From positions 1 through 28,838 of the forward strand of contig DATEWS010000451.1 in assembly GCA_035257785.1 (NCBI GenBank): a stretch of 28,838 nucleotides of DNA, in the 5' to 3' direction. This document shows, piece by piece, positions 6,202 to 28,799 of this stretch. Source of the DNA: Pyrinomonadaceae bacterium (GTDB lineage Bacteria > Acidobacteriota > Blastocatellia > Pyrinomonadales > Pyrinomonadaceae). The first letter of the stretch is position 1; each line of letters begins with the position of its first letter. The notes under the pieces were generated by a model. That model was not told where the DNA came from, did no database searches, and saw nothing but the letters and a program-made list of their open reading frames with translations. The translations under genes were made by a program, and so were the position numbers.

Positions 6202-6324
6202 AATCCCCTTCTTATTAAACGTTTAGCACTAGGGTAAACTTCCTCATGTGCGGATGAAGGTAGCTCAGTTCCCGTGGCAAGCGGTTAAGTGTGTGTCTGC
6301 CACAGGTTTGTAGCCCAGATCCTG

Positions 6325-7992
6325 ATGGTTAAGAAGTCCCCCATTGCCCTGAGTCCTCAGGAACATCGTGAAGACGCGCCAACTTCCTGGCCAGAAACCC
6401 AGGACGCTTTGGCGGAGTCGTCGGGACTCGCTCTGCTTTTAGTAGATGGCCATCAGCCGCCTGCGGTGGTAGTGTCAAACAACAACTCGATTTGTCACAC
6501 CTTTCAAACCTCGCCTGAGCACGTCCAACTTTGCGACCCTTATTGCGGCGCCGCTCATTCGAAGGCGATGAAAGCGGGCGGGACGATCGAATACAAATGT
6601 CATGCGGGACTCTCGTGTTTCGCGAGACCGGTTGAGATCAGTGGCAAACGAAATCTCGCGGTGATCGGCGGGCGGGCTTTCGTAAAGAGCTCGGATTACC
6701 AACAACTGATGGAACGCTTTCGCACTGGAGATTTGGAATCGATCGCATCGGATGAAGTCTTCGCGAACATTCTGTTCGCGGAGCCGCAGCGCCTTGCCGA
6801 GCTCGAAGAACGTGTCGAGCGGGCTGCACGACGTCTGCAAGCCGCATCGTCAAACGGCTCCGGCAAGGTGGTCCAACCCGCGGCGACAAAACCAGCAAAG
6901 CCGGAACCAACGAAGGCTCAGCAGGAGTTGGAACAGGAAGTAGAGCGTTTGCGAAATGAGCTCGCGTATCGCGCCCGTTTCACCGATTCGCTGCAACACT
7001 TTCTGGAGCGAATAAGCGGCGCAGATCCGGTTAAGACGTACAATTCGATTATCAGTAATTCGAAAGAACTTCTGCAGTCAGAACGTGCTTCGCTGATGGT
7101 GTTGGACGAAACTGCAAATGAGTTGATCCTGAAAGCTGCGAGTGGACTTTCGACTGATCCGAGTTCCGTGCCGCCGGTGCGTGTCGGTGAAGGCGTGTCG
7201 GGTGAAGTTATCGATACTGGCAAGGCGTTGATGGTAACGGATCTTCGGATGGCTGGTCGCAAACCTGCGCCTGCCGAACGTCATTACAAGACAAACTCGT
7301 TCATCAGTTATCCGATCACGATCGGGGGGCGGAAAGTTGGTGTGCTCAACGTCACTGACAAATCGGGTGGCGGAACTTATGACGAAGTCGATCTGAGTTT
7401 GCTGGAGATCATTGGACCACAAGTCGCGCTTGCGCTCGAGCGCGCCGAGTGGCAGGAACGAGCGACTGAATTTCAACTGATGTCGATCACGGATGCGCTC
7501 ACAACGCTGCCGAATCGGCGGTATCTCGAGGAGCGGCTCTCGGAAGAGTTGAGTCGTTCGAAGCGCTACGATTATCCGATGAGCTTTTTGATGATCGATA
7601 TTGACGACTTCAAGGTTTACAACGACAAAAACGGGCATCAGGCAGGCGACCTGGCGTTACAGATCACGGCGCACTGTTTGAAGGGCGCGCTGCGGCAGGC
7701 TGACGTGGCGTCGCGTTATGGTGGCGAAGAGTTCTGTATATTGCTGCCACAAACGGGCATGCTCGAGGCGGGAGTGATTGCGGATCGCATCCGCGCTCGG
7801 GTGTCGACGACAACCTTTCCGCACGGGAAGTCGCAGCCTCTTGGTCGTGTAACTATAAGTGTGGGAGTGTCGACGATTATGAAAAACGTGGACACGCCGG
7901 AAAATATCATTGCCGCCGCGGACCGTGCGCTTTACCAGGCGAAAAGCATGGGAAAGGATCGGGTGGAGTTTTACGGAGAAAAAGAAAGCTAG
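6325..7992 (+). CDS. PocR-like sensor / coiled coil / GAF / GGDEF diguanylate cyclase
   Basis: N-terminal Cys-containing PocR-like segment (ICHTF...LCDPYC...YKCHAGL...IGGRAF); GAF (VGEGVSGEV, PITIGGRKVGVLNV); DALTTLPNRR, DIDDFKVYND, GHQAGD, A-site GGEEF with RxxD I-site (RQAD) five residues upstream. ATG 6325 chosen over GTG 6289; start uncertain. Confidence 0.9.
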   Translation: MVKKSPIALSPQEHREDAPTSWPETQDALAESSGLALLLVDGHQPPAVVVSNNNSICHTFQTSPEHVQLCDPYCGAAHSKAMKAGGTIEYKCHAGLSCFARPVEISGKRNLAVIGGRAFVKSSDYQQLMERFRTGDLESIASDEVFANILFAEPQRLAELEERVERAARRLQAASSNGSGKVVQPAATKPAKPEPTKAQQELEQEVERLRNELAYRARFTDSLQHFLERISGADPVKTYNSIISNSKELLQSERASLMVLDETANELILKAASGLSTDPSSVPPVRVGEGVSGEVIDTGKALMVTDLRMAGRKPAPAERHYKTNSFISYPITIGGRKVGVLNVTDKSGGGTYDEVDLSLLEIIGPQVALALERAEWQERATEFQLMSITDALTTLPNRRYLEERLSEELSRSKRYDYPMSFLMIDIDDFKVYNDKNGHQAGDLALQITAHCLKGALRQADVASRYGGEEFCILLPQTGMLEAGVIADRIRARVSTTTFPHGKSQPLGRVTISVGVSTIMKNVDTPENIIAAADRALYQAKSMGKDRVEFYGEKES

Positions 7993-8043
7993 CCGCGGAT
8001 AACACGGATTGAAAATCCGGATTTTTTCCGTGTTATCCGTGGC
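7992..8043. repeat. REP-like inverted repeat, family A copy 1
   Basis: GCCGCGGATAACACGGA / TCCGTGTTATCCGTGGC: 17-bp stem with one G-U, and an 18-nt loop containing the palindrome AAAATCCGGATTTT. Confidence 0.85.
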
Positions 8044-8053
8044 CAAAAAGTTG

Positions 8054-10336
8054 ATGAGCAGTCGCAGCCCCAGCGAAAACTTCCGCCGCATCCTCGGCCG
8101 CGTGGTCCAGCAGGACTTTGTCGGCCGTGCAGAGGAACTTGACCGCATCATGGTCCACGCGGAACCCACCAATGCCGGCCGTGGTCTGCTGCTCCTGATG
8201 GAACCTTCTGCGGGCGTCTCTGAGCTGCTGCGCCAGGCCTACGATCAACTCTTCAACCAGCACACTGACGTCATCCCTATCTACTTTGCGATCACGCCCA
8301 ACGAGACCACAGCCGTCAGCGCTGCGATCGAGTTTCTCAACACATTCGTCCAGCAATACATCGCCTTTCGCCGCAACGAGCCCGTCGTCTCAAACGCGCC
8401 CTTAACCTTGCAGGAATTACAGGAGCTCGCACTGCCTACGGATCTCGAATGGATCGAACAACTCATCGAGTCGTACAACCGCCTGCGCTTCGGTAACGAC
8501 GACAAAGCACTGGTCCGCTTCTGTCTCGGCGCGCCACAACGCGTTCCCTCCGGTCGTGGCCGGCCCTTCGTAATGCTCGACGGTTCGCAGCTCGCTGAGT
8601 ATCTAAATGGCGCCGTAGTTTTGGGAACGGAAATCCTGCGCGTGTTCGCACGTGGCAGTTTCTCTTTCGTTCTCGCCGGGCTGCGTCGCCAGATCCTCGA
8701 AGCAGCACACGACGCAAAGTGTGACTTCGAATTCCTGGACACGCTGCGTCTCGAACAACTCGACACGAACGACGCAACAAAACTCGTCGAACACGTCGCG
8801 CAGCGCCAGCAGGTAACGACGAGCGAGATCGCGCGCGATCTGCTGGTCCAACAATTCGCCGGCAGCCCGTTTTTCATCAACATCTTTTTGCAGGCAGCAC
8901 GCGAGAAACACACGTCGCTTATCTCTTATCTCGATTGCCAACGGCTCTACGTCGATGAACTCTTCGGCGGTCATATTCACCGTCACTTTGCTGATTTACT
9001 CGAAGAAATCTCGCCACGTCTCGACACGCGTCATCTTCTAATTCGATTGCTTTGGGAAGCGGCTGCGGGTGAAGAGCAGGTCTCGTCGTTTGAAGTCTGG
9101 CGCAAACGTCTTCACATGGCGGCGAGTGAACTCGAAGACGTGCTGCATCGATTGCACGTGCAGGAGTTTATTAACTGGGACGGAGCGACAGTCGAAGCCG
9201 GAGCTGGACCACAGGCGTGGAAAGACTATCTCAAGATTCGCTATCGACTTGATGTGCTCAACGAGCCGCGCGCTCTCGTTGTGGCCGACATGCTGGCCGA
9301 CTCTCTCAAGCGCGCGCCGCACACGATGGCGCGACACTACAAACAGATCGCAGACGCGGGCTTGCGCGATTTGATCTCGCACTTCAACTGCCAGCGAGTG
9401 CCTGCGGTACTCTTCGACTATGAGAGCTTCAGCAACAAGTACAGAGGCGCGGAGAGCGAGACAATCGCCTCAGGACTCGCAGCCGAAACTGAGTTCGTTA
9501 AACTGCCGCAGACCATCCATCTCGCCAGTTGCGCGGCTTTCTTCAACGATATGCGTCAGGTCTGCGAAGAGGACCACTGTCTTGTCGCGCACACGTTCGA
9601 AGAGGGAAGTTATTCCGACGCGCAACAGGTGATCTGGCTCGCAGCGGACATCAAGTCAAAGCTCGAAGTCGACGTCGAAGTCGCACGCTCCTGGTGCGAT
9701 CGACTCGAGAACATGGCCGAGCGTCTCAGCTTCAGTCGTTTTCAGATCTGGCTAATTTCAAACGAAGGTTTCTCAGACCAGGCCGGACGATTACTCGAGC
9801 GTCGCAAAGCTTTTGGCTCGAGTCGTCAGCAACTGGGCCTGCTTGCTGCGCGTCTAGGCGAGGCTGTTGTGAGCGATATCGTACAGACGAGCGAGCGCGA
9901 CGAGTTTCTGATGGTGGTTCCGATGGGCGAGGACAACGAGCTGATTGCAGCCAACACTGCCGAGCAGATCGCGAAGCGTTTGACCTTTCGTCCGGAGGCA
10001 ATCAACCAGATAAAAACGGCGATTGTCGAGGCTTGTATCAACGCCTCCGAGCACAGTTTCAGCCCCGATCGAAAAATTTATCAACGTTTTCGCGTCGAAA
10101 GTGATAGATTAGTCATCACAATTTCGAGTCGCGGCATCGTGCCCGCCAATCTAAACGGCGCGAATAGCGGATCAGAAGCGAAAGAAGCGGCGGAAGAAAG
10201 ACGCGGTTGGGGACTTAAACTCATCCGAACTCTCATGGATGAGGTCGAGTTTGAACGAGTCGACGACGGCACCAGTTTGCGCATGACCAAGTATTTGCGG
10301 TCACAGAAAAGCACAAAAGGCGCAAGCGAATCTTAA
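8054..10336 (+). CDS. Multidomain protein (760 aa): degenerate STAND/AAA-like NTPase, wHTH, possible PD-(D/E)xK-like domain, and C-terminal RsbW/SpoIIAB-type GHKL (HATPase_c_2) domain
   Basis: FVGRAEEL (AAA_16-like pre-Walker motif), degenerate Walker A EPSAGVS, Walker B FVMLDG, STAND GxP motif AGSPFFI. C-terminus has EACINASEH (N-box), RGWGLKLI (G-box) and MDEVEF...GTSLRMTK. ATG 8054 preferred because TTG 8009 lies inside a repeat. The C-terminal call is firm; the N-terminal and middle calls are less so. Confidence 0.8.
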   Translation: MSSRSPSENFRRILGRVVQQDFVGRAEELDRIMVHAEPTNAGRGLLLLMEPSAGVSELLRQAYDQLFNQHTDVIPIYFAITPNETTAVSAAIEFLNTFVQQYIAFRRNEPVVSNAPLTLQELQELALPTDLEWIEQLIESYNRLRFGNDDKALVRFCLGAPQRVPSGRGRPFVMLDGSQLAEYLNGAVVLGTEILRVFARGSFSFVLAGLRRQILEAAHDAKCDFEFLDTLRLEQLDTNDATKLVEHVAQRQQVTTSEIARDLLVQQFAGSPFFINIFLQAAREKHTSLISYLDCQRLYVDELFGGHIHRHFADLLEEISPRLDTRHLLIRLLWEAAAGEEQVSSFEVWRKRLHMAASELEDVLHRLHVQEFINWDGATVEAGAGPQAWKDYLKIRYRLDVLNEPRALVVADMLADSLKRAPHTMARHYKQIADAGLRDLISHFNCQRVPAVLFDYESFSNKYRGAESETIASGLAAETEFVKLPQTIHLASCAAFFNDMRQVCEEDHCLVAHTFEEGSYSDAQQVIWLAADIKSKLEVDVEVARSWCDRLENMAERLSFSRFQIWLISNEGFSDQAGRLLERRKAFGSSRQQLGLLAARLGEAVVSDIVQTSERDEFLMVVPMGEDNELIAANTAEQIAKRLTFRPEAINQIKTAIVEACINASEHSFSPDRKIYQRFRVESDRLVITISSRGIVPANLNGANSGSEAKEAAEERRGWGLKLIRTLMDEVEFERVDDGTSLRMTKYLRSQKSTKGASES

Positions 10337-10387
10337 CAAGGGAACCAGAAAACAAAGTTCAATTAAGCTTTTGTCCCTTTTAGTGGC
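10300..10387. repeat. Degenerate REP-like inverted repeat, family C, straddling the stop codon of the upstream CDS
   Basis: GTCACAGAAAAGCACAAAAGG (10300-10320) pairs imperfectly with GCTTTTGTCCCTTTTAGTGGC (10367-10387) and resembles GCCACAAAAAGGCAC at 14544 and 28804. Confidence 0.55.
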
Positions 10388-10416
10388 AAACATTCGAGGC
10401 AGGAGGGAGCTTTCGA

Positions 10417-10797
10417 GTGGATACACCAAGTGGCAAGCTAGTACGCTCACATTGTGTTGGCACCACTGCGGTTGTTTACGCAAGCGACTACCTTAATAAG
10501 CTGACCGGCGAGAAGATCGAGCGCGAATGTCGCCGGCAACTGAATTGTGGGTGCCGCGCGCTCGTGATCGACTTCAGCGATACCAAACTGGTCAACAGTA
10601 TAGGTGTCTCAATCCTCCTCGGCATCATCGACGTCGCCGAAAAATGCGGCGCTCGCATCGCCTTTTCAGAAGTGAATAACGAAACAGTCCAGCTATTCGA
10701 AATGCTTGGACTGACTCGCCACGTTGTCCTCGCGAAAGACGAACGAGAAGCGCTGATGAATCTTTCGCACTATGAGACTACTCCCATAGTCCACTGA
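10417..10797 (+). CDS. STAS-domain anti-sigma factor antagonist (RsbV/SpoIIAA-like)
   Basis: 126 aa; LVIDFSDTKLVNSIGVSILL matches the STAS phospho-Ser loop (D-L/F-S...D/N-S-x-G); VQLFEMLGL. GTG start with GGAGG upstream. Confidence 0.88.
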   Translation: MDTPSGKLVRSHCVGTTAVVYASDYLNKLTGEKIERECRRQLNCGCRALVIDFSDTKLVNSIGVSILLGIIDVAEKCGARIAFSEVNNETVQLFEMLGLTRHVVLAKDEREALMNLSHYETTPIVH

Positions 10798-10801
10798 TTC
10801 C

Positions 10802-12064
10802 ATGGAGCCTTCGACTCAGAAACTGATCCACACATTCGGAGCGCTTGCCGACCTGGGCCAGGAGATTGCCGGCACCGGCGATTTCAATGAGATGGTCCGT
10901 ACGTCGATGCACATGCTGCTCGGGACGCTCGCATTGCGACGCGGTGCCGTGGTGGAGTGTACTTCCGGTGGTCCACTTCGTTGCGCCGCGCTCTGGGGTC
11001 TCAGCGACCAGATGTTTGACGGGTTTGAGATCGACGAGCTCGAAAAGCAGTCATTTCTCCAGGGCGATCCAAGTGAACTGCTGGTCAGCAGCACAGAGGT
11101 CACGAACACCTTCATTAATCGACATCGTGACAAACTCACAGCCGAGGGCATCGAACTCGTCTTGCCGATGATCGTGCGTGGTGAAGTGACAGGCATGGTC
11201 CTGCTCGGCGGCAAAGCCAGTGGTGAAGAGTTTTCAGAAGATGACTTCGAAACGATTCGCGCGATGGTCCGTCACATCGGTGTCGGGATTCACACGCATC
11301 GTTTACTCGAACAGGTGGCGCAGCGAGCGGAAGAGAATCGAAGACTGTATGAAGAGTTGCGCGCGATCTATCGCGACACAGTAAGGGCGTTTGCGGCGGC
11401 GATCGATATCAAAGACAAGTACACGCAGGGTCACTCGGAACGTGTGGGCAGGTACAGCGAGATCATCGCGCGTGAGATGGGTTGGAGTGAAGAAGAAGTC
11501 GAGGGAATTCAGATTGCTGGATACCTGCACGACATCGGCAAGTTGATCGTCGATCGCGACATCATCAACGCGCCTTACAACATCGATGCGAAGAATTCGA
11601 GTGAACTGAATCGACATCCTGCGGCGGGATACGAGATCCTGTCGCCGATCAATCATCCTTACGCGGACATACCGTTGATGGCTAAGTACCATCACGAGCG
11701 TCTCGATGGGCGTGGTTATCCGGATGGATTGACGGACGAGCAGATCCCGATCGGCGCAAAGATCGTTTCGCTAGCGGATTCATTTGACGCAATGACGACG
11801 GATCGTCCTTACCGGCGGCGGCGATCGTTTGAAGACGTTGTACGCGATCTGCGGGAGAACAGTGGCAAGCAGTTCGATGGCAAGGTTGTGGCTGCGTTTG
11901 CGAGAGCGATGCTGAAAGAGGTCAAGGGCGAAACCAAAGATCGACGCATCACGAAGATGCTCGGCAAAAGCTACCTCGAAGGTGAACAAGTCCCGACTTT
12001 ACTCACGGATCTCATCTCCGACCTGGAAGAAGTCTCGCGCAGCGGCGCAGCGGCACAACGCTAA
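10802..12064 (+). CDS. GAF + HD-GYP cyclic-dinucleotide phosphodiesterase
   Basis: GAF-like N-terminus (LVLPMIVRGEVTGMVLLGGK), coiled-coil linker, then DKYTQGHSERV, LHDIGK, HHERLDGRGYPDGL, ADSFDAMTTDRPYR. Confidence 0.92.
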   Translation: MEPSTQKLIHTFGALADLGQEIAGTGDFNEMVRTSMHMLLGTLALRRGAVVECTSGGPLRCAALWGLSDQMFDGFEIDELEKQSFLQGDPSELLVSSTEVTNTFINRHRDKLTAEGIELVLPMIVRGEVTGMVLLGGKASGEEFSEDDFETIRAMVRHIGVGIHTHRLLEQVAQRAEENRRLYEELRAIYRDTVRAFAAAIDIKDKYTQGHSERVGRYSEIIAREMGWSEEEVEGIQIAGYLHDIGKLIVDRDIINAPYNIDAKNSSELNRHPAAGYEILSPINHPYADIPLMAKYHHERLDGRGYPDGLTDEQIPIGAKIVSLADSFDAMTTDRPYRRRRSFEDVVRDLRENSGKQFDGKVVAAFARAMLKEVKGETKDRRITKMLGKSYLEGEQVPTLLTDLISDLEEVSRSGAAAQR

Positions 12065-12096: not shown

Positions 12097-12957
12097 TTAC
12101 TTAGGCTGGATTCGCAGAACAAAATTGCAGATCGCAATCTTCTGATCGGGCGCGACTTCGGTCGGTTCTTCGCGGATTAACTCTTTCCCATTCACGACCG
12201 TCGGATTTCGGCCCTTCGCCACGAGCCAGTATCGCCCTTCATTATCACGCGACAGCACCGCATGAACGCGACTCACTTCCGGATCGCCTTTGATCGGAAG
12301 GTCCACCGAGATACTCCGCGAACCACGACCAATCGTTATTTCGTTTTTGGCGATGGGAACCACTGCTTCGCGCACGCCGCTGCGCCACACCTCAACCGAG
12401 TAAAGCGCCTGCGCCTTCGGACGTACGACAGTTTGCTCACTCTCGCTGATTACATCCGAAGCACGCTCTACCACCGTGTCGTTCGGATTAAACGCGGGCG
12501 CCGTCTGCCCCGGATTTACACGCGGCGTCACCATCGTGTGACCACTCTCCGTCTCATCCCAAACTGCCTGCACGCGAAACTCACCCTTATTCAACGTTCC
12601 ATCAACACGCAGTTCAACTGCAAATGACTTGACTGCCAGTTGCGTCTGTCCGCTCAGCTCGCGCGCGCGTTCGGAAAGCACGTGAAAGAGTCCCTGCTCG
12701 AGTCCACGACGCTTATCGCCCTGCCAATCCTTATCGTCATCGGCGCTGAGGTAAACGATGTATTCGCGGGGAATGTAGGTTGGACCACCTGGCGGCGTGA
12801 ACATCTCGCGCTGCATCGCAGCCTCGACTTCGCGCGCAATCTTCACGAGAAACTCTTCCCACACGCGGCGGGGCTTGGCATGTTCGTCGGCGGCTTCGAG
12901 TAGATCCTCGCCTGTTTCACCGTCTATCCATTTTCTGATCGATTCAAGCAGGCCCAA
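12097..12957 (-). CDS. FhaA-like protein: DUF3662-like N-terminal domain + C-terminal FHA domain
   Basis: N-terminal ...TYIPREYIVYLS...GEFRVQA pattern; FHA motifs IGRG, VSRVHA, GRNPTVVNG. TTG start with AAGGAG 7 nt upstream. Confidence 0.85.
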   Translation of the reverse strand: MGLLESIRKWIDGETGEDLLEAADEHAKPRRVWEEFLVKIAREVEAAMQREMFTPPGGPTYIPREYIVYLSADDDKDWQGDKRRGLEQGLFHVLSERARELSGQTQLAVKSFAVELRVDGTLNKGEFRVQAVWDETESGHTMVTPRVNPGQTAPAFNPNDTVVERASDVISESEQTVVRPKAQALYSVEVWRSGVREAVVPIAKNEITIGRGSRSISVDLPIKGDPEVSRVHAVLSRDNEGRYWLVAKGRNPTVVNGKELIREEPTEVAPDQKIAICNFVLRIQPK

Positions 12958-12985
12958 ACTTTCGCTCCTTCTGCCGCACGCAAAA

Positions 12986-14533
12986 TCAGTCGAACTTTAC
13001 GTATATCTTTCGAATCCAGCCACGGTCCGAAGAGTATGGATCGGTCTTCGGCCGCGCATGTTCCAACACCTGCACTTCGTACCAATTGGGATCGGCATTC
13101 AAGATCTTAACCTTTGATCCTGACTCAGCGAGTCCGATGGGAGCGTTATTCGCGCTGCTCGCGATCGGTCGCAGATTTACATCGGTCGTCGTCACACCCT
13201 GCCGCCCAATCGGCTCAACATTCTGTATGGTGGTCAGCGGATTCCAATGCGTCGTCACGTACTTGTGCGTCGCCAATAGCATTCCGGAAAACGCGAGGAT
13301 CAAACCCAACGCAACTAAAGCGCGCCGCTTGCGGCTGGCAGGAAATACAGACGCTGTTACTGGTGGACCGATCGTCTCGAATCTACGTTCCGGTTCAACT
13401 CTCGCATCCTGACGCGTTTGCAGTTCCCGCTGACGCCGCGTTTCCATTCCGACACTGATCGGCACAACGATCCGCGGACGTCTTTGTGAATCAAGCTCGG
13501 TCAGCACCGGACGCGGCACATCGAAGTGCGGTCGCGGCGGCGCCGCTTCCGTGAACTCCTCTTCAGGCTCGACTGACAGATCCGCGCTCGGCTTCCGACG
13601 CATCTGCTGCAACTCAGGCGTCACCATCTGTAACGGCCGCGTCGGCGGCAGGCTCGCATCGGCAATGTCGTCCCAGAACTCTTCAACAGTTTGATAACGA
13701 GCTTCAGGCCGATTTTGAGTCGCCTTTTCAAGCACGCGCAGCACTGGCCTGGACCAAAACTCCTCGCTTATGTGCGACGGCAACTCGCTGATTGCGTGTT
13801 GCGCGAAGCGACGCGGCGATTCACCCGCAAGCAACGTGTACGTCGTCTTCGCAAGCGAATAGATGTCGGCTGCCGGAGTCAGGTGAACGTGCTGCAATCG
13901 CAATCCGGTGGTGTCGAGTTGCCCCGTTTGCATTAAGGGGTTGTGCTCGGGCGCTGAATAGATGTTTGTTCCGACTCTCGTAATCGCACCGTCAGTGTTG
14001 TCGAGACGAGCGACGCCGAAGTCCGCGATCTTCACGACCTCCTGATCGGCGGTGAGCAAAAGGTTTTGCGGTTTGATGTCGCGATGGATGACGCCGCACT
14101 TGTGCGCATGTGCGAGTCCGGAACAGACCTGCTCGAGATAAAACAGCGCTCGCTTGAGCGATAACGGTCGCGTCTTCGTCAACGCAAAGAGATCGCCGCC
14201 GGGCAAATATTCGAGCACGATGTAATGAAACGTTGTGCCCGCGAGATCGATGGCGGTTCCGTGACCAAGGCGATTGATGACGTTCGGATGGCGCACCCGA
14301 TCGAGCGCCACCGCTTCGTTCTGAAAATTCGTGACCAGAGTTCGCTCGAGCTCGGCATCCGGCGCGTCCTGGAGATAGAGATTCAGCGCCTTGATGACGA
14401 TGGTGCGCGCTGCGCCTTCAGGTGCGGCGTTGTCGTTGGCGACGTAGATCTCAGCATAACTGCCGCGTCCGAGGCATTCGAGGATGTCATACCGCCCATC
14501 GAGTCTGCTCTGTTGAAGTTTGAGTTCCGACAT
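12986..14533 (-). CDS. Hanks-type Ser/Thr protein kinase with a TM helix and a C-terminal SH3b-like domain
   Basis: GRGSYA, VIK, HRDIKPQN, DFG, GTNIYSAPE, DIYSL; TM ALVALGLILAFSGMLLA; tail TTTDVNLR...GSKVKILNADPNWYEVQV...GWI resembles bacterial SH3. Confidence 0.92.
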   Translation of the reverse strand: MSELKLQQSRLDGRYDILECLGRGSYAEIYVANDNAAPEGAARTIVIKALNLYLQDAPDAELERTLVTNFQNEAVALDRVRHPNVINRLGHGTAIDLAGTTFHYIVLEYLPGGDLFALTKTRPLSLKRALFYLEQVCSGLAHAHKCGVIHRDIKPQNLLLTADQEVVKIADFGVARLDNTDGAITRVGTNIYSAPEHNPLMQTGQLDTTGLRLQHVHLTPAADIYSLAKTTYTLLAGESPRRFAQHAISELPSHISEEFWSRPVLRVLEKATQNRPEARYQTVEEFWDDIADASLPPTRPLQMVTPELQQMRRKPSADLSVEPEEEFTEAAPPRPHFDVPRPVLTELDSQRRPRIVVPISVGMETRRQRELQTRQDARVEPERRFETIGPPVTASVFPASRKRRALVALGLILAFSGMLLATHKYVTTHWNPLTTIQNVEPIGRQGVTTTDVNLRPIASSANNAPIGLAESGSKVKILNADPNWYEVQVLEHARPKTDPYSSDRGWIRKIYVKFD

Positions 14534-14542
14534 TTAATTTTT

Positions 14543-14624
14543 AGCCACAAAAAGGCACACAAGGCACCTAACAGAACCAAACCGTTCTTTTACGCCTACG
14601 TGCCTTTGGTGCCTTTTTGTGGCT
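14543..14624. repeat. REP-like inverted repeat, family C
   Basis: AGCCACAAAAAGGCAC (14543-14558) / GTGCCTTTTTGTGGCT (14609-14624): perfect 16 bp, plus inner AAGGCAC/GTGCCTT. Confidence 0.85.
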
Positions 14625-14668
14625 CATTTCGCACCTTAGATGCCTCACAAGAGATCATGGTTCTGTGC

Positions 14669-16153
14669 CTAAGGGGCGTTTGAGTTGGAGGGAGGTTTGG
14701 TCAGTTCTTCGTAATGATTCAGCACTTTCCAACGGTCACGCTGAGTGCGAACGCTAACAGCCGCGAGGCCGAGAACTGCTTCTCTTTTGATCGTGGCGTT
14801 TGCGGGCGAGGGATTTGCATCCGCTTTACTGATCGCGGCGTCAAAAGCCTTGCTCGCCTCGTCAGTGTTTCCGGTCAGAAGATTTGCGCGACCGTAAAGA
14901 TACAAAAAATCCGCATTCGGCGAATCGAGTGGACTCTGAACGTTTGACGCCAGCAACTCCTTGCTGATGTCGTTCGCGAGCCACGCGCGTGGATCCTGAT
15001 CGACTTGCCTTCGCGCACGTTCGAACTTCACAAAAGGCTCCTCCGGAACCGGCGTGCTCGTTGGCGCGGAAACCGCCGGTGTTTGCGCCCTGGTTGCCAG
15101 GAAGGGAATTCGTTCCTTGTAACGCGCGCCTGCATAAAAAGCTCCGCCGATTAACAACAGCACGACCAGAACACCTAACAAGCGCCCCACGCCACTGCCT
15201 CCTTTCGCCGCCACAGGCGCCGCAACGTTGAGTGGTTCTGTCACAACTGCGGCTGCCGTCGCAGGCGCCGGAAACGCGATGCGCGAAGCCGGAACAAAAG
15301 TGTTCTCCGGTTCAGAACCGTTGCTCTGGACCGCGTAAACCGGCTCCGTTTCCGGCGTAATCGTCGGTTCCAGATCTGCCAAACGCTCGCCGGCTTTCAA
15401 ATGTTCGCCAACACGCACAACGATCACAGTCAAATTGTCTTCCGCGCCACGCTCGTAGCAACGTCGTTTCAACTCACTGCAAAGATCGTCGAGACTGTTG
15501 CTGATAACCATTAGCTGCCGCAGCTCGTTGTCGGAAACGTGACGAGTGATGCCGTCAGTACAGAGCAGAAACTCCGTGCCGTCTTCGACTTCCATCGTCT
15601 TCATGTCAACTTCGACAGCCTGCTCAGCGCCGAGCGCACGACTGATGACGTTCTTACTGGGATGATTCGCGGCTTGCTCGGGCGTCATTCGTCCGGCCCG
15701 CACTTCTTCTTCGACGATCGAGTGGTCCTCAGTTTCGCGGTGCAGTTGCCCGTCCGGAGTGAGACGGTAGAGACGTGAATCACCGACGTGACCGAACGTC
15801 GCGACGTTGCCTTTGAGATGGAGCGCGACGATCGTAGTCGCCATCATCGAAAACTTCGCGTGCTCCTGGGCCATCTGGTGAATGGAAGCATTCGCGCGTT
15901 GAATGGCGAGCTCCATCAAGTCTTCAACGTCGGCGCCGTCAACCTGGTGTCGAAACGCTTCGTCGAGAACTTCGATCGCTGTTTGCGACGCTACCTCGCC
16001 CGCCTCAGCGCCACCGACGCCATCCGCTACAGCGAAGATGGAACGACCCTGATCGTGGAGGAGTGCGTCCTCGTTCAGTGGGCGCCGTTCGTTCAGGCCG
16101 CGGTCCGTCAGGGCTGCGGAGTGGACCTGAAAGGTTTTAGTGTCTTCGCTCAT
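14669..16153 (-). CDS. PP2C/PPM-family Ser/Thr phosphatase (PstP/Stp1-like) with a TM helix and a helical, TPR-like C-terminal domain
   Basis: TDRG..R..NED, VADGVGG, GHVGDSRLY, LLCTDG, GAEDNLT; TM LLGVLVVLLLIGGAFYA; C-terminal FLYLYGRANLLTGNTDEASKAFDAA is TPR-like. ATGA overlap with the rodA stop. Confidence 0.92.
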   Translation of the reverse strand: MSEDTKTFQVHSAALTDRGLNERRPLNEDALLHDQGRSIFAVADGVGGAEAGEVASQTAIEVLDEAFRHQVDGADVEDLMELAIQRANASIHQMAQEHAKFSMMATTIVALHLKGNVATFGHVGDSRLYRLTPDGQLHRETEDHSIVEEEVRAGRMTPEQAANHPSKNVISRALGAEQAVEVDMKTMEVEDGTEFLLCTDGITRHVSDNELRQLMVISNSLDDLCSELKRRCYERGAEDNLTVIVVRVGEHLKAGERLADLEPTITPETEPVYAVQSNGSEPENTFVPASRIAFPAPATAAAVVTEPLNVAAPVAAKGGSGVGRLLGVLVVLLLIGGAFYAGARYKERIPFLATRAQTPAVSAPTSTPVPEEPFVKFERARRQVDQDPRAWLANDISKELLASNVQSPLDSPNADFLYLYGRANLLTGNTDEASKAFDAAISKADANPSPANATIKREAVLGLAAVSVRTQRDRWKVLNHYEELTKPPSNSNAP

Positions 16154-17841
16154 TCAACTGCCTCCAGCTTAAGGGGAGAAGAACTCTTAGCTACCGGCCG
16201 ATCCGCTATGACACGATCGCGGGCATTTCTACTTGAAAACGCCATCAGCATCCCGAGCATCGCAAAACTAGTAATCAAACTGAAACCACCGTGACTCACA
16301 AACGGCAACGTGATTCCAGTCATCGGCAAAGCACGCAAGATACCGCCAATATTCACGAGGGCTTGAAAACCGACAAACGCTGTTAGACCTGCCGCGCATA
16401 ACTTCGTAAACATATCACGCGCCTCCAGCGAAGTGCGAACTCCTGCGACCACAAAAATAATGATCGCGAGGATGATCACAGCCCCACCAGCGAGGCCGGT
16501 TTCTTCAGCAATTGCGGCGTAAATGTAGTCGGAGTCGGCAATCGGGATCACTTCCGGAAAACCCAGACCAAAGCCGCGTCCGGTTGATTTGCCGGAGGCG
16601 ATTCCAAACTGCGCCTGCGCGGGTTGAAAGGCGAGTTGGTCGAACCAGATATCAACGTTAACAGTCTTCTGCATCGCCGGGCTCTGCTCGGCTAGTTCTT
16701 TTAGTTTCGGATCCTTCTTCAGTGCTTCATCGTAGTCTTTCTTCCACCACGAGACTTCCGGCGACGGCGGATCGAAACCATCGAGCCAGAGATGGAAGCG
16801 TTGTTGAATGCGAGAGGGAAGTGCAGCGCTGATCGGGCGTGCGATCGTCGGCAGCAGCGGCACTTTTTCCTGTATGTCGCGCGGTAACGCGCCAACGACG
16901 AGGATGCTGATCACGAGCAGCACCGAACCGACGAAGAGAAGCAGTTGTGGCCAGCGACGAACAGCGACGAGATAAAGCGTCGTGTAAGCGCCGCTGAAGA
17001 TCAACATCTGGCCGAAGTCTTTGAGTGCGAAGAAGGGAACAAATGGCAATATTGCCATCACGAGTAGCGGCACGATGTCGCGCGCGCGTGGAATGCCCCA
17101 GTAAGTCTCAGCGAGATCTTTGTAACGAGCGGTGAGAATGCCTGCGAAGCCGACGAGGAACGGGATCTTCGAAGGTTCCCACGGCGTCATGTTACCGAGT
17201 GCTTTACCAGCGCTGGATGTGACGACTGCGATCGCGAGTGGAGCAAGCGTGAACAATACGATGATGAAACTATTTCGCTGTAGCCATAAGAGAAAACCGT
17301 CACGCGCACACAACGAATACGCGATCGCGAAAGCGAAGAACGAGAAGACTGGAATCCATGTGTAACTCGAAGTGATGGCGTTCCAGAGTGAGTAGTTCGA
17401 CTCTTTTTTCGGGAGTTGACTGATATCGATCGGCTGGGCCGGAGTTGGAGGCAGACCCATCATCTGTTTCTTGATGGGATCGTAGTTCTCCATGATGTAG
17501 CGCGTACGCAGCGCCTGCATCTTCTCTTCGCGCGCAGCGGCTTTGTTACGCGCGTTGTATTCCGGATCGCTATAGAGGCGATACTGGATCAGCATGCCGA
17601 AGGCGAACAGGAGAATCGCGGTGGTGAAGAGAACCCAGTTGCCGGCAAATCTCTTGCTGCGCGAGAGCCAGAGCACCAGGAAGATCAGTGGAACGAACAT
17701 CGCGAGGTCGCGCACCGCGCCGATGATCGATGTTTCGTATCCTCGCAACAAGCCGGAACGATGCACCGCGAAATAACCGGTGATCTCGAGGCCGAGAATG
17801 ATCAGGATGATTAATAGATGTGACGATGCCCGATTCCGCAT
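16150..17841 (-). CDS. rodA: SEDS-family peptidoglycan glycosyltransferase (RodA/FtsW), 563 aa, with loop insertions
   Basis: KDFG, GFGLGFP, DSDYIYAAIAEE (catalytic Asp region), NIGG...LPMTGITLPFVSHGGFS; about 10 TMs; adjacent to a class B PBP. The rodA symbol rests on synteny. Confidence 0.88.
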   Translation of the reverse strand: MRNRASSHLLIILIILGLEITGYFAVHRSGLLRGYETSIIGAVRDLAMFVPLIFLVLWLSRSKRFAGNWVLFTTAILLFAFGMLIQYRLYSDPEYNARNKAAAREEKMQALRTRYIMENYDPIKKQMMGLPPTPAQPIDISQLPKKESNYSLWNAITSSYTWIPVFSFFAFAIAYSLCARDGFLLWLQRNSFIIVLFTLAPLAIAVVTSSAGKALGNMTPWEPSKIPFLVGFAGILTARYKDLAETYWGIPRARDIVPLLVMAILPFVPFFALKDFGQMLIFSGAYTTLYLVAVRRWPQLLLFVGSVLLVISILVVGALPRDIQEKVPLLPTIARPISAALPSRIQQRFHLWLDGFDPPSPEVSWWKKDYDEALKKDPKLKELAEQSPAMQKTVNVDIWFDQLAFQPAQAQFGIASGKSTGRGFGLGFPEVIPIADSDYIYAAIAEETGLAGGAVIILAIIIFVVAGVRTSLEARDMFTKLCAAGLTAFVGFQALVNIGGILRALPMTGITLPFVSHGGFSLITSFAMLGMLMAFSSRNARDRVIADRPVAKSSSPLKLEAVE

Positions 17842-17848
17842 ATGTTTT

Positions 17849-17902
17849 AACCACAGATGACACAGATAGAAAATCGGATTTTTTTCTGTGTCATCTGTGG
17901 TT
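17849..17902. repeat. REP-like inverted repeat, family A copy 2
   Basis: AACCACAGATGACACAGA / TCTGTGTCATCTGTGGTT: perfect 18 bp. Its 18-nt loop TAGAAAATCGGATTTTTT is nearly identical to the loop of copy 1. Confidence 0.88.
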
Positions 17903-17904
17903 TC

Positions 17905-19740
17905 TTATCTGAAATACCCGAGGTCCCTCGCTTTCAACACGAGCGCTGCGGCGATGGGCGCAGCGGATCTCGATCCGTAACCACCACCTTCAACAATCAC
18001 CGCCATCGCAAGCTGCGGCTTCTCGAGCGGCGCGATGCACAGAAACCAACCGTCAATCCGCGGATGGTCATTGTCCATGATCACTTCATCGTACTCGCGG
18101 ATGATGTTGCCCTTATTATCGCGCTCGACCTTGTGTTGCGTCTTGGGTTCTCCAGTCTTGGGATCGTAAACAGGCACGACCTTCTGCGCCGTTCCCGTTT
18201 TGCCACCGGTATTGATTCCCGCGGCCTTCACTGGTCCAAACACACCGCGCGCCGTTCCACTTGGACCACCTGTGACCAACCCCATGATGGATCGCAAACG
18301 AGCCGCAGTCTGCGGCGTCATCACCTGGTTGAACGGCTGTGGCGCCACGTTGTACTCGATCCGGGGCTTCATCAACTTGCCTTCCATATTCCCAATCGCC
18401 GACGCCGCGAGCGCCATTTGAAACGGCGTCATCTGTCCCGCATAACCCTGACCGTAACCCATCAACGCCAGGTCGTATCTCGTCACCTGCTTCCCCGTAA
18501 CGATCGTCGCCTCCCTCGGTGCGAGCGCGCGTTTAACTGCATCAGTGCTCGCATCCCAGATCTCCGGCAGCTTGCGACCACGCAACGCTTCCGAAGGCGT
18601 GTCATAAGCACCGATGCCCAACAACTGCGCCGCGCGTTTCAGACGTTCCGGTCCGAGCTTCACGCCCATCTGCGCGAAGTACTGGTTACAAGAAACCTCA
18701 TACGCCTGATCGATCTTGATCCGGCCGTGTACTTCGCCCGGTCCACCATCGTCGAAAATCACGGGCGCTCCGGGCGCGGCATAGTAACCACCGCCACTAC
18801 AGGTAAACTCCGTGTCCTGCTCGCCCGCCAGAAACGCGGCAGTCATAGTCACTGTTTTAAAGGTGGAGCCGGGAATGTAATACGCACCGAGCGCACGACT
18901 GACGAGCGGTTTGTCGCGTTCATTCGCTTCGAGACGAATCCACGTTGCTTCGTCGTCAACTTCCGCCAGACTGTAAGAAGGCTCGCTGTAAAGCGCGAGC
19001 ACGTCTCCGGTTTGCGGATTAAGAACTACGACCGCGCCGTGCTTTCCCTTCAACTGGTCCACCGCGGCCTGTTGCAGCGAACGATCGATCGTGAGGCGCA
19101 CGTCCTGGTTGCCTTTGAACTCGACTTCCTTGCCTTTAACGATCTCAAGCGCTTCGGGCAGAGCGCCACTCTGAACTCCGAACAACGCACGCTCGAGTCC
19201 CGGATCGCCGCGATCCGATCCGAATATGTGGGCCAACGCCTTATCCATCGGATACTCACGCTGGATGTTGCCGCTCGAATCGCGTTTGTAATAAGCGAGC
19301 GGTTGGTCCACACGACCGCTGCGATCATAGATCCAGCCGCGCAGCGTAGATTGCGAAAGCCGGCGCACGCGCAGGTCCTTGTAACTCAAGTCCTGAAACT
19401 TTTCATTTTGTTCTACAGCGTATTGCGCCCAGTAGATATGAAAACCAAAGAGGCCGAACGCAAGCAGGATAAAAAACCAGCGCAGAGCGCGTAATCCGCG
19501 ATTGGTTGAAGTTGACCCGAGTCTTTTTCGGACTTCTTTGGGAAGGTCTTCAGGAATAGCAGGACCGATCTGGCGACGACTGCGAATCAGTCCGAGCAGT
19601 AAGAGCAAAATGACGAAGCCGAAACCTCCGACGTAGATCAGCGTGAACAGCGCCGGGGTTCGTTCGGGCACATGCGGAGTCGGAAGGGGAGTAGGTGCAG
19701 AAGTTTGGAAGAGAAGTAGAAGTAATATGAATCCGTTCAT
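17905..19740 (-). CDS. pbpA: Class B penicillin-binding protein (PbpA-like transpeptidase)
   Basis: LRGWIYDRSG pedestal motif, SxxK (PGSTFK), SxN (SCN), KTG (GKTGTAQ). The symbol is assigned from similarity of architecture and synteny to the actinobacterial rodA-pbpA pair. Confidence 0.88.
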   Translation of the reverse strand: MNGFILLLLLFQTSAPTPLPTPHVPERTPALFTLIYVGGFGFVILLLLLGLIRSRRQIGPAIPEDLPKEVRKRLGSTSTNRGLRALRWFFILLAFGLFGFHIYWAQYAVEQNEKFQDLSYKDLRVRRLSQSTLRGWIYDRSGRVDQPLAYYKRDSSGNIQREYPMDKALAHIFGSDRGDPGLERALFGVQSGALPEALEIVKGKEVEFKGNQDVRLTIDRSLQQAAVDQLKGKHGAVVVLNPQTGDVLALYSEPSYSLAEVDDEATWIRLEANERDKPLVSRALGAYYIPGSTFKTVTMTAAFLAGEQDTEFTCSGGGYYAAPGAPVIFDDGGPGEVHGRIKIDQAYEVSCNQYFAQMGVKLGPERLKRAAQLLGIGAYDTPSEALRGRKLPEIWDASTDAVKRALAPREATIVTGKQVTRYDLALMGYGQGYAGQMTPFQMALAASAIGNMEGKLMKPRIEYNVAPQPFNQVMTPQTAARLRSIMGLVTGGPSGTARGVFGPVKAAGINTGGKTGTAQKVVPVYDPKTGEPKTQHKVERDNKGNIIREYDEVIMDNDHPRIDGWFLCIAPLEKPQLAMAVIVEGGGYGSRSAAPIAAALVLKARDLGYFR

Positions 19741-19749
19741 CCAGTTTCG

Positions 19750-20598
19750 CTACTCACTTTTACGCAATCGTACTTCTACGTCTCCAAAACCAACCACATC
19801 GCCGTCTTCGATCAATCGTGATTCACCATAAGAGATGCGACGCCCGTTGAGGTAAGTGCCGTTGGTCGAACCAGTGTCGGCAACGAGAAGCGTGCCTTCG
19901 GCAGTCATCAAGAGCGCGCCATGAATCTTCGACACGCTTGCGTCGTTCAAGGTGAGTTCGTTATCAGCGGCGCGGCCGACGTTGAGTCGTTTGCCTCCGG
20001 GCTTGAAGATCAGCGGAATTTCGCGCGTGCCGGCTGGCATAGTAACGCGTGCGATCACCTGGATGTCAGGCATCGGCGGCGCCGCGCCCGGAATCGGCAA
20101 ACCCAATTTAGCGGCGCGCATCTCTTCGTCCTGACGCCTGAGATCCTCTTCGAATTCTCCAAAAGTCGGATCGACGGAGATTCCGGTGGTGAAGATGTCG
20201 ACTTCGGCGTCGACCGTAACTGGTCCAAGCGTGCGGTAACGATGATCGTTAATGTGATCGATCGCGGCGGCGAGCACTTCGTTTTTCAGATCGTGAAGAA
20301 TTTCGGGCGGTGCTTCGGAATGCGTGCCCCACTCGACTTTGAGGACGAGGTGGTGCGGCGCGATCCTGCCTTTCCTGCCTTCGTCTCGAACGCGCTCATC
20401 GATCAACTTTTTCATGCGCTCGATGAGTTTCGAAGTGGTGAGTCCGCTTCGCGGTTCGACTGTGCGACCGAGCCCGCGGTCGACGACGCTGCCCATGCCT
20501 TCGAGCACGCGACGCAGCAGGCGTTCGGGTAGCGCTTCCTCGCGCTTTTTCCTTGCGTCTTCGTTTACCTTACCAGCCGAGTCTTCTGCGTCAGTCAT
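19750..20598 (-). CDS. FhaA-like protein: DUF3662-like domain + FHA domain
   Basis: IAPHHLVLKV...AIDHINDHRYRTLGPVTV (DUF3662-like); FHA motifs VGRAADN, SVSKIHG, DTGSTNGTYLNG. Confidence 0.88.
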   Translation of the reverse strand: MTDAEDSAGKVNEDARKKREEALPERLLRRVLEGMGSVVDRGLGRTVEPRSGLTTSKLIERMKKLIDERVRDEGRKGRIAPHHLVLKVEWGTHSEAPPEILHDLKNEVLAAAIDHINDHRYRTLGPVTVDAEVDIFTTGISVDPTFGEFEEDLRRQDEEMRAAKLGLPIPGAAPPMPDIQVIARVTMPAGTREIPLIFKPGGKRLNVGRAADNELTLNDASVSKIHGALLMTAEGTLLVADTGSTNGTYLNGRRISYGESRLIEDGDVVGFGDVEVRLRKSE

Positions 20599-28172: not shown

Positions 28173-28799
28173 ATGACAAATAGTGAAGTCTTCCCAATTT
28201 TGCACGGTGGCCTGGCGGCCACAACGAAATCTGAACCAGCGCCAAATTCGGATTTGGCGTTGGCTATCGCCGCCGGCAAAGGCGACATGGGCGCGTTTGA
28301 GAAGATTTATGAGCGTCACAACCGGCGGGTGTATTCACTGTGTCTGCGGATGACGCAGAATGCGGCTGAGGCTGAAGATCTCGCCCAGGAGGCGTTCATA
28401 CAGTTATTTCGCAAGATCGGCAGCTTCCGTGGCGATTCTGCATTCACGACATGGCTGCACCGGTTGACGGTCAACCAGTGTCTGATGCACTTCCGGAAAC
28501 GCAGTGTGAAGATGGAGAAAACCACTGAGGAAGGTGAGACGCCGGTACAGATCGTCAGCGGCACTGAAAACCCCAACTCGATGCCGATCATGGATCGCAT
28601 CGCGCTGGATAATGCGTTAACACAACTACCGCCGGGATATCGAACCGTCTTTGTGTTACACGACGTTGAAGGTCACGAACACGAAGAGATCGCGAAGATG
28701 CTCGGCGTTGCTGTCGGCACTTCCAAGTCGCAGTTGCACAAAGCGCGCATGAAGCTGCGCAAGATTCTTAAAGCGCGCAACGAACCAAGCAAGAATTAA
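28173..28799 (+). CDS. ECF-family sigma-70 RNA polymerase sigma factor (208 aa)
   Basis: Region 2: AFEKIYERH...AEDLAQEAF...[11 protein letters not shown]. Region 4: [16 protein letters not shown]...EEIAKMLG...[11 protein letters not shown]. No region 3 and no C-terminal extension. Confidence 0.93.

Follow-up and report, generated by a model that had tools for sequence, protein, structure and literature searches.

The locus and its four-gene cassette

We examined a gene on the forward strand of a 28,838-nucleotide stretch of DNA (contig DATEWS010000451.1, positions 1 to 28,838; hereafter, the window) from the Pyrinomonadaceae bacterium assembly GCA_035257785.1. The protein that it encodes is a pre-existing ATPase_2-type module, consisting of an AAA+ domain, a winged helix, and a Mrr-like nuclease-fold domain, to which an RsbW-like GHKL domain has been added. 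The gene lies directly between a gene for a diguanylate cyclase, which is an enzyme of cyclic di-GMP (c-di-GMP) metabolism, and genes for a STAS protein and a c-di-GMP phosphodiesterase. The four genes form a cassette with the following layout.

6289 to 7992, + strand: PocR-GAF-GGDEF diguanylate cyclase with GGEEF motif and RxxD I-site (Pfam), the upstream partner
8009 to 10336, + strand: open reading frame (ORF) in the ORF list
8054 to 10336, + strand: whole gene, 760 residues plus stop codon, with residues numbered from the Met at 8054
10417 to 10797, + strand: single-domain STAS protein, RsbV/SpoIIAA-like (Pfam STAS), a downstream partner
10597 to 10599, + strand: codon of the conserved Ser in the STAS motif LVNSIG
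10802 to 12064, + strand: GAF-HD-GYP phosphodiesterase (Pfam HD_5, HD, and GAF), a downstream partner

For conservation analyses, we used an alignment of 87 full-length representatives that are 25 to 51% identical to the query, drawn from a family with at least 589 confirmed relatives. M1 is near-invariant in this alignment. Because the homologues begin at the Met encoded by the ATG at 8054, this codon is almost certainly the true start, and we ruled out the upstream TTG at 8009 on the same grounds. A near-perfect inverted repeat (7992 to 8043; arms of approximately 15 bp, loop of 18 nt) occupies most of the 61-nt gap between the cyclase stop codon and the ATG. The repeat is unlike an intrinsic terminator because no T-run follows the stem on either strand; it resembles a REP-like (repetitive extragenic palindromic) intergenic element.

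Close relatives of the protein come from Pyrinomonadaceae (Acidobacteriota, Blastocatellia) and are annotated just as "ATP-binding protein" or "RsbW". The gene is single-copy in its own genome. Apart from the window's own genome, we sampled 300 Acidobacteriota genomes: the gene was found in 16 of 16 from the window's family and in both from a second family, and the others yielded no copy.

The diguanylate cyclase gene lies directly upstream in 82 of 82 Blastocatellia loci, and also in six other loci (L083, L084, and L099 to L102). The STAS and HD-GYP genes follow downstream wherever the contig is long enough, with three or four exceptions among the 82. An OppF gene upstream and an FHA gene downstream are likewise conserved across the Blastocatellia loci. 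Because this whole neighborhood is syntenic within the class, distant loci are the informative cases. The most distant members (L083 and L084, 24 to 26% identity) have the same four genes in the same order between unrelated flanks. The partners also retain their characteristic motifs: each of the 91 GGDEF-domain ORFs that we scored across the fetched loci contains GGEEF together with RxxD, the N-S-I-G motif containing the phosphorylatable Ser of the STAS protein is invariant (84 of 84), and the HD and GYP motifs are retained in the phosphodiesterases of the fetched loci. No sigma factor gene was found in the cassette at any locus examined. A search with PADLOC returned no family at E ≤ 0.01 for the scaffold protein or the STAS protein; with no model match, a known anti-phage defense system was ruled out.

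At L084, a gene for a PilZ-domain protein, a member of a c-di-GMP receptor family, directly follows the HD-GYP gene (10019 to 10411, minus strand). A 3.9-kb contig (VBKE01000560.1; L021) whose record is labeled Deltaproteobacteria bacterium carries a 59%-identical orthologue with GGDEF and STAS neighbors. This contig is probably mis-binned, since all other close matches are Blastocatellia.

Domain architecture and the N-terminal AAA+ module

We generated a full-length AlphaFold2 model from the 87-sequence alignment (mean predicted local distance difference test score [pLDDT] 91.4, predicted template modeling score [pTM] 0.83). The domain order is an ATPase_2-like AAA+ core, a lid, a winged helix, a helical linker, a PD-(D/E)xK-fold domain, and the RsbW-like GHKL domain. 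The domains and motifs, all on the + strand, are as follows.

8054 to 8818, + strand: AAA+ nucleotide-binding core, residues 1-255 (from the strand and helix order in the model)
8117 to 8140, + strand: motif FVGRAEEL, residues 22-29
8201 to 8230, + strand: EPSAGVSELL at the Walker A position, without Lys, residues 50-59
8567 to 8584, + strand: Walker B motif FVMLDG, residues 172-177
8675 to 8692, + strand: sensor-1-like motif AGLRRQ
8819 to 9073, + strand: helical lid, residues ~256-340 (helices within 258-338 in the model)
8858 to 8878, + strand: GxP motif AGSPFFI in the lid, residues 269-275
9074 to 9208, + strand: winged-helix domain, residues ~341-385 (strand 343-345, helices 346-353 and 357-369, strand 379-381)
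9098 to 9172, + strand: WRKRLHMAASELEDVLHRLHVQEFI, a helix-rich segment within the winged helix, residues 349-373
9209 to 9358, + strand: long helical linker, residues ~386-435 (helices 387-401 and 406-433 in the model)
9359 to 9868, + strand: PD-(D/E)xK (restriction-endonuclease/Mrr-like) fold domain of ~170 residues, residues 436-605 (from a separate model)
9644 to 9661, + strand: site of the ADIKSK motif in the middle domain
9896 to 10303, + strand: RsbW/SpoIIAB-like GHKL domain, residues ~615-750 (Pfam HATPase_c_2)
10028 to 10054, + strand: N box EACINASEH, intact
10121 to 10141, + strand: degenerate G1 box ISSRGIV, without Asp
10199 to 10225, + strand: G2 box RRGWGLKLI, intact

The original prediction for this gene was a STAND-like pseudo-NTPase fused to an anti-sigma-type GHKL domain. 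Each of the motifs on which it drew in the N-terminal part (FVGRAEEL, EPSAGVSELL, FVMLDG, AGSPFFI, and a segment resembling a winged helix-turn-helix [wHTH]) was located where it had been placed. The prediction had allowed that the N-terminus might not adopt a P-loop fold; approximately 400 residues model as an AAA+ core, lid, and winged helix. In the model core, the secondary-structure elements run in the order strand, P-loop, helix, strand, helices, Walker B strand, sensor-1 strand, and fifth strand, which is the order of an ASCE (additional strand, catalytic E) P-loop core, and a helical lid and winged helix follow. The GxP in the lid (residues 270-272) is part of the family consensus, and the lid aligns structurally with the lids of 2qen, ORC, and NLR structures. 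The winged helix is included in structural alignments to 2qen, 2fna, ORC2, and CED-4, which extend up to approximately residue 405 of the model. The near-invariant residues of the winged helix are L367 and E371, not a His.

In the VIA structural search with residues 15-395, the best matches were 2qen (Z 22.4, 323 of 350 residues aligned) and 2fna (Z 21.6), followed by plant NLRs, Dark, CED-4, Apaf-1, and ORC/Cdc6 at Z 15 to 18. NLR, CED-4, and Dark structures superpose over model residues ~5-410 (Z 16 to 18), and Foldseek on the N-terminal module returned a match at E = 1e-7. Sequence searches with the query gave far less. The Pfam AAA_16 match was below threshold (E = 0.038, 14.9 bits versus a cut-off of 32.6), there was no ATPase_2 match in Pfam, and a search of PDB sequences with the whole protein matched RsbW and SpoIIAB alone. 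A family-profile search added just weak clamp-loader matches (RFC small subunit, E = 3e-4). Four homologues that keep the Walker A Lys do pass Pfam thresholds: P0271 and P0259 for ATPase_2 (43.4 and 37.8 bits versus 33.2), and P0231 and P0233 for AAA_16 (41.7 and 35.8 bits versus 32.6). The assignment of the N-terminal region to the P-loop AAA+ proteins is secure because the model, the fold matches, and transitive homology to above-threshold members agree; for the query, whose own Pfam score is sub-threshold, membership is thus predicted from fold and transitive homology. The description of this region as STAND-like is accurate as regards the structural triad of core, lid, and winged helix, but the nearest group is ATPase_2/Orc1-like AAA_16 rather than the classical STAND clade.

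The residues of the nucleotide pocket are under strong constraint. R25, P51, G54, S/T56, E57, D176, and R212 are some of the best-conserved residues in the N-terminal 400; among the 87 representatives, the column counts are 83 for P51, 86 for G54, 84 for S/T56, 86 for D176, and 80 for R212. At the position after the Walker B residue Asp176, 35 of the 87 have Asp, 16 Gly, 11 Asn, 10 Ala, and 5 Glu, and the query has Gly. The original prediction had noted a Walker B motif lacking the catalytic Glu. This is true of the query, but the acid at this position in the family is mostly Asp, with Glu in only 5 of 87.

Loss of the Walker A lysine

Where the Walker A consensus is GxxxxGK[ST], the query reads E-P-S-A-G-V-S, so that Val stands in for the Lys and the first Gly is missing too. 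Distant homologues that keep the Lys (GAPRVGKSELL, GQPQVGKTELL, and GRRGIGKSEVL) align column for column with EPSAGVSELL, and this alignment bears out the register in which the substitution of Val for Lys had originally been read.

The Lys is absent in 77 of the 87 representatives. No single replacement is conserved at this position, where A, S, T, L, V, C, or I occurs. In the 88 Blastocatellia loci examined outside a sister family of the same class, the Lys is absent without exception and V, A, L, I, G, or C is found there. In that sister family, two genomes keep it (GAPRAGKTE and GAPRIGKTE) within the same cassette.

We built a maximum-likelihood tree without the P-loop columns and placed its root, by assumption, on the three ATPase_2-scoring members. 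The Lys-less sequences group in a single clade of 78 rows (SH-aLRT [Shimodaira-Hasegawa-like approximate likelihood ratio test] support 100) with one apparent reversal, P0184, and the minimum number of changes for the Walker A Lys on the tree is two. On this tree, the Lys of the window's family is reconstructed as lost once and, save for one exception, never regained. The original prediction had allowed for local decay of this copy, an explanation that we ruled out: the loss is shared across the family's clade and extends to all 88 of the Blastocatellia loci outside the sister family. The Lys-keeping members tie the family to bona fide P-loop NTPases because they pass the ATPase_2 or AAA_16 thresholds.

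Within the Lys-less clade, P0184 alone reads GGGKSELL and appears to have regained the Lys; it is sister to the Lys-less P0179 (support 99).

Several Arg residues are enriched in the Lys-less clade compared to the Lys-keepers: R93 (84% versus 0), R211 (97% versus 22%), R261 (77% versus 0), and R163 (79% versus 11%). This comparison is descriptive, as it reflects one evolutionary event. Considering the conserved columns and the lost Lys together, we infer a pocket that selection appears to have maintained, yet that would no longer be built for hydrolysis.

A PD-(D/E)xK-fold domain in the middle of the protein

Modeled alone, the middle domain (residues 436-605) reached a pLDDT of 95.3. In an exhaustive VIA search, its best match was 1y88_A (Z 10.1, root-mean-square deviation [rmsd] 2.4 over 107 residues), followed by NucS, Can2, R.BspD6I, AspBHI, MspJI, and FokI, with NucS, Can2, MspJI, and FokI at Z 6.5 to 7.8. 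Foldseek returned nothing under E = 0.01 for this domain (best E = 0.013).

The same combination of domains exists without the GHKL domain. The top match in the AlphaFold DB was a 537-residue Orc1-like AAA ATPase that aligned to query residues 1-586 (E = 2e-19), and another match, a Mrr-domain protein, aligned to residues 19-590. Neighbors of approximately 560 residues found with a language model (Atlas) carry ATPase_2, HTH_IclR, and Mrr_cat. We regard the RsbW-like domain as the added part because these stand-alone ATPase-Mrr proteins match the query over residues 1-586 and 19-590. The joining of AAA+ modules to PD-(D/E)xK domains is a known pairing (PMC1913061).

The nuclease-site columns are retained in most of the 87 representatives (D/E507 in 65, D/E534 in 74, and K536 in 80). 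Lys at 534 occurs in just 1 of 92 sequences, the query, whose site is D532-I-K534-S-K536. At this position (nt 9653 to 9655), 87 of 92 orthologues have Glu or Asp; the closest relatives (78 to 85% identical) have Glu, with one Gly. Either a private change or a consensus error in the assembly of this metagenome-assembled genome may account for the Lys of the query.

An RsbW-like GHKL domain with a degenerate G1 box

The C-terminal domain was recognized by Pfam as HATPase_c_2 (PF13581; E = 5e-19, 69 bits versus a cut-off of 27.4). In the VIA comparison with RsbW (6m36), it gave Z 19.9 and an rmsd of 1.4, with 37% identity over 105 structure-aligned residues. Pfam, the PDB alignment to 6m36, and VIA all place it as RsbW/SpoIIAB-like, in agreement with the anti-sigma-type GHKL C-terminus that had been proposed. 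Matches to the NCBIfam RsbW and SpoIIAB models were sub-threshold (60, 55, and 49 bits versus equivalog cut-offs of 145, 155, and 135).

The N and G2 boxes are intact. At the G1 box, the query reads S-S-R-G-I-V in place of DxGxG, and the position of the Asp is occupied by Asn in 69 and Ser in 18 of the 87 representatives, including the members that keep the Walker A Lys. The loss of this Asp is a trait of the family, because the two other strong HATPase_c_2 domains of the same genome keep DxGxG (HDQGPGF and EDEGEGF). In GHKL proteins, the G1 Asp hydrogen-bonds adenine, and in Hsp90 and GyrB, ATP binding is lost when the corresponding Asp is changed to Asn. Kinase-negative homologues of RsbW are documented, and a kinase-positive homologue has been noted to keep the N, G1, and G2 motifs (PMC7693655). 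Because the G1 Asp is lost and kinase-negative RsbW homologues exist, the motif state suggests that the GHKL domain serves chiefly for binding, with efficient kinase activity being less likely.

The genome has other proteins of this type. A canonical partner-switch set lies at the end of contig C442 (L097, 1485 to 2551, minus strand), where a gene for an RsbW-like protein with an intact DxGxG precedes a tandem pair of paralogous STAS genes that carry the classical DSSG motif. On contig C779 (L098, 899 to 1666, minus strand), a third RsbW-type protein of the genome combines a receiver-like N-terminus with a HATPase_c_2 domain whose G1 box is intact.

Proposed function and alternatives

We propose that c-di-GMP turnover in Blastocatellia is set by the four genes acting as a partner-switching cassette, with the protein described here as its central scaffold; we give this reading an even chance. 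The architecture, motif states, phylogenetic pattern, and conservation of the cassette are as described above, and the interactions and direction of signaling in this proposal are those that the genes suggest. The GHKL domain would bind the neighboring STAS protein as RsbW binds RsbV, and it would probably act mainly through binding rather than as an efficient kinase. The STAS protein, with its invariant phosphorylatable Ser, would partition between the scaffold and the cyclase, the phosphodiesterase, or both, and its release to act on these enzymes would be governed by the state of the Ser together with the state of the scaffold. The AAA+/winged-helix/nuclease-fold module would be the sensing or assembling part; presumably no longer cycling by ATP hydrolysis, it might serve as a ligand-holding or oligomerizing switch that controls access to the GHKL domain. 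In Pseudomonas aeruginosa, the phospho-form of the STAS protein HsbA acts on the cyclase HsbD (PMC5085249). A complex prediction for residues 436-760 with the STAS protein, run without controls, scored 0.19 against a mark of 0.34, which we count neither for nor against binding.

Several observations weigh against this proposal. Without the G1 Asp, the GHKL domain may be unable to phosphorylate the STAS Ser, and a classical kinase-driven switch would therefore need an outside kinase. No PP2C phosphatase was found in the cassette loci; SpoIIE-family matches elsewhere in the genome number eight, at least five of them strong. The (D/E)xK site of the middle domain is plausible across the family, and a pure protein-protein switch leaves it unexplained. 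The retained Ser/Thr of the P-loop, Walker B Asp, and sensor Arg would also fit residual NTPase activity. Finally, functional linkage can be told apart from inherited gene order only at the few distant loci.

One extension of the proposal concerns what the scaffold might sense. Of the two degenerate nucleotide pockets, one could have switched its specificity from ATP to a guanine nucleotide such as c-di-GMP, GTP, or pGpG: either the P-loop that lost its Lys and is accompanied by clade-specific arginines, or the GHKL site, where the adenine-binding Asp became Asn or Ser. By sensing a product or substrate of the two neighboring enzymes, the scaffold would then complete a feedback circuit via the STAS protein. 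We consider this extension improbable; if true, it would make the scaffold a c-di-GMP receptor of a new class, one based on an AAA+ or Bergerat fold.

The protein could instead be a true anti-sigma factor, with the GHKL domain sequestering a sigma factor encoded elsewhere and the STAS protein relieving it, in which case the flanking cyclase and phosphodiesterase would provide the input, as c-di-GMP or GTP sensed by the scaffold, and not the output. The nearest relatives of the GHKL domain are RsbW and SpoIIAB, proteins that bind sigma B and sigma F, the best NCBIfam matches are the models of these two proteins, and some RsbW homologues without kinase activity function solely as anti-sigma factors (PMC7693655). 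We nevertheless place this alternative on the unlikely side, given that the cassette has no sigma factor gene in any locus examined, that the sole sigma factor gene of the window is of the extracytoplasmic function (ECF) type and lies 18 kb away, and that the NCBIfam scores of 49 to 60 bits are far under the equivalog cut-offs of 135 to 155. Alternatively, the N-terminal module may still bind and slowly hydrolyze ATP or GTP by means of other basic residues, forming a nucleotide-dependent oligomeric switch as in STAND proteins. The strong conservation of Gly54, Ser/Thr56, Glu57, Asp176, and Arg212, as well as the Arg residues fixed only in the Lys-less clade (R93, R163, R211, and R261), speak for this alternative. 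These arginines trace to one evolutionary event, however, and the position of the Lys has no conserved substitute but a mix of small or hydrophobic residues, the first Gly of Walker A is missing too, and the second Walker B acid is variable (D in 35, G in 16, N in 11, and A in 10 of 87), all of which makes a working NTPase unlikely.

The middle domain raises the separate question of action on nucleic acids, in which the winged helix and the Mrr-like domain would bind or cut DNA in a restriction or defense role and the RsbW/STAS pair would merely regulate them. The PD-(D/E)xK fold retains D/E534-x-K536 in most members, the ancestral ATPase_2/HTH/Mrr_cat module is widespread on its own, and the pairing of AAA+ with PD-(D/E)xK domains is established (PMC1913061). 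Set against this, the protein matches no PADLOC defense model, the window's own copy has Lys and not an acid at 534, and the partners in the cassette are c-di-GMP enzymes in every case. In addition, the gene is single-copy, syntenic, and present in every sampled genome of the family, unlike mobile defense genes. We therefore consider a nucleic-acid function very unlikely.

Flanking genes

Following the cassette, positions 12097 to 20598 of the window (minus strand) contain genes for an FHA protein, a Hanks-type kinase with a C-terminal SH3 domain, a PP2C protein, an FtsW/RodA protein, a class B penicillin-binding protein, and a second FHA protein. The FHA gene adjoining the HD-GYP gene is syntenic in most Blastocatellia loci. 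The ECF-type sigma factor gene (Sigma70_r2 and r4_2) is at 28173 to 28799, and nothing links it to the RsbW-like protein.

Significance and comparison with known systems

Partner-switching modules and c-di-GMP networks are two main decision circuits of bacteria, and there are few documented links between them; the examples that we found are HsbA-HsbD and SiaABCD. Here, a cyclase and a phosphodiesterase flank a switch pair in a conserved, single-copy cassette of four genes, with a kind of scaffold that has not been described for RsbW proteins. The component types are all known (ATPase_2/STAND-like AAA+, PD-(D/E)xK fold, RsbW, STAS, GGDEF, and HD-GYP). In the literature searched, we found no paper on an AAA+/STAND-RsbW fusion or on the four-gene cassette, and thus none that describes the architecture as a characterized family, a possibility that the original prediction had left open. 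What we did not find there, and regard as new relative to it, is the combination of domains, the double degeneration of the nucleotide pockets, and the fixed four-gene cassette. The sister lineages with and without the Walker A Lys in the same cassette constitute a natural experiment, and comparing them would reveal what an AAA+/STAND-type switch does after giving up hydrolysis. The protein also offers a first handle on the widespread, uncharacterized ATPase_2/wHTH/Mrr proteins, and it is a candidate regulator of lifestyle switching in Blastocatellia, which are abundant but poorly studied soil bacteria.

Among proteins of known structure, the N-terminal module most resembles the ATPase_2 (PF01637) proteins PABY2304 (2qen) and SSO1545 (2fna), with which the AAA+ core, lid, and winged helix superpose over approximately 320 residues. 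It shares with the archaeal-type ATPase_2 proteins the N-terminal FxGR..EL motif and the GxP motif in the lid, and distant members of the window's family reach the Pfam ATPase_2 threshold. The order of AAA+, winged-helix, and nuclease-fold domains is also that of uncharacterized stand-alone ATPase_2/AAA_16-wHTH-Mrr_cat proteins of approximately 540 to 600 residues. In contrast to ATPase_2 proteins, the window's clade lacks the Walker A Lys and first Gly and has an RsbW-like GHKL domain added C-terminally, and the query falls under every Pfam AAA threshold.

STAND NTPases are defined by the triad of a nucleotide-binding domain, a helical domain with GxP, and a winged helix, together with an Arg after strand 4. 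They oligomerize in a nucleotide-dependent manner, and a conserved His (MHD-like) in the winged helix contacts the nucleotide. The window protein shares the triad with STAND proteins (Apaf-1, CED-4, Dark, plant NLRs, and MalT) and with ORC/Cdc6 (Z 13 to 18), as well as the Walker B Asp, the Arg after strand 4 (R212, 80 of 87), and the GxP, although structures of both groups score below those of ATPase_2. Unlike STAND proteins, it has neither a Walker A Lys nor a repeat-type sensor domain, and no MHD-like His was identified in its winged helix, where the conserved residue is Glu371.

The C-terminal domain shares with RsbW and SpoIIAB the Bergerat fold, the N box (E..N..H), the G2 box, and an adjacent STAS gene with a conserved Ser. 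RsbW and SpoIIAB are stand-alone proteins of approximately 150 residues, whereas the window protein is about five times longer. Its family differs further in that the DxGxG of the G1 box is changed to S/N-R-G-x-x, no sigma gene is nearby, and NCBIfam scores are sub-equivalog. RsbW-like domains do occur inside larger signaling proteins, such as Rv1364c of Mycobacterium tuberculosis (3ke6, Z 16.9) and LvrC of Leptospira (9qih, Z 13.5), but their fusion partners are PP2C/PAS/STAS or receiver domains rather than an AAA+/winged-helix/nuclease-fold module.

At the level of the cassette, the closest resemblance that we found is to HsbR-HsbA-HsbD (PMC5085249) and SiaABCD (PMC8457831), in which a STAS-type or switch protein is likewise encoded beside a diguanylate cyclase. 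In the HsbA-HsbD pair, the STAS protein binds the cyclase domain in a manner that depends on the state of Ser56 (PMC5085249). The kinase partner in these modules is HsbR, a response regulator-PP2C-kinase protein, or SiaB, whereas in the window's cassette, whose switch is deduced from its genes, the corresponding place would be taken by an AAA+/nuclease-fold scaffold. The two modules also lack the HD-GYP phosphodiesterase gene that the window's cassette contains.

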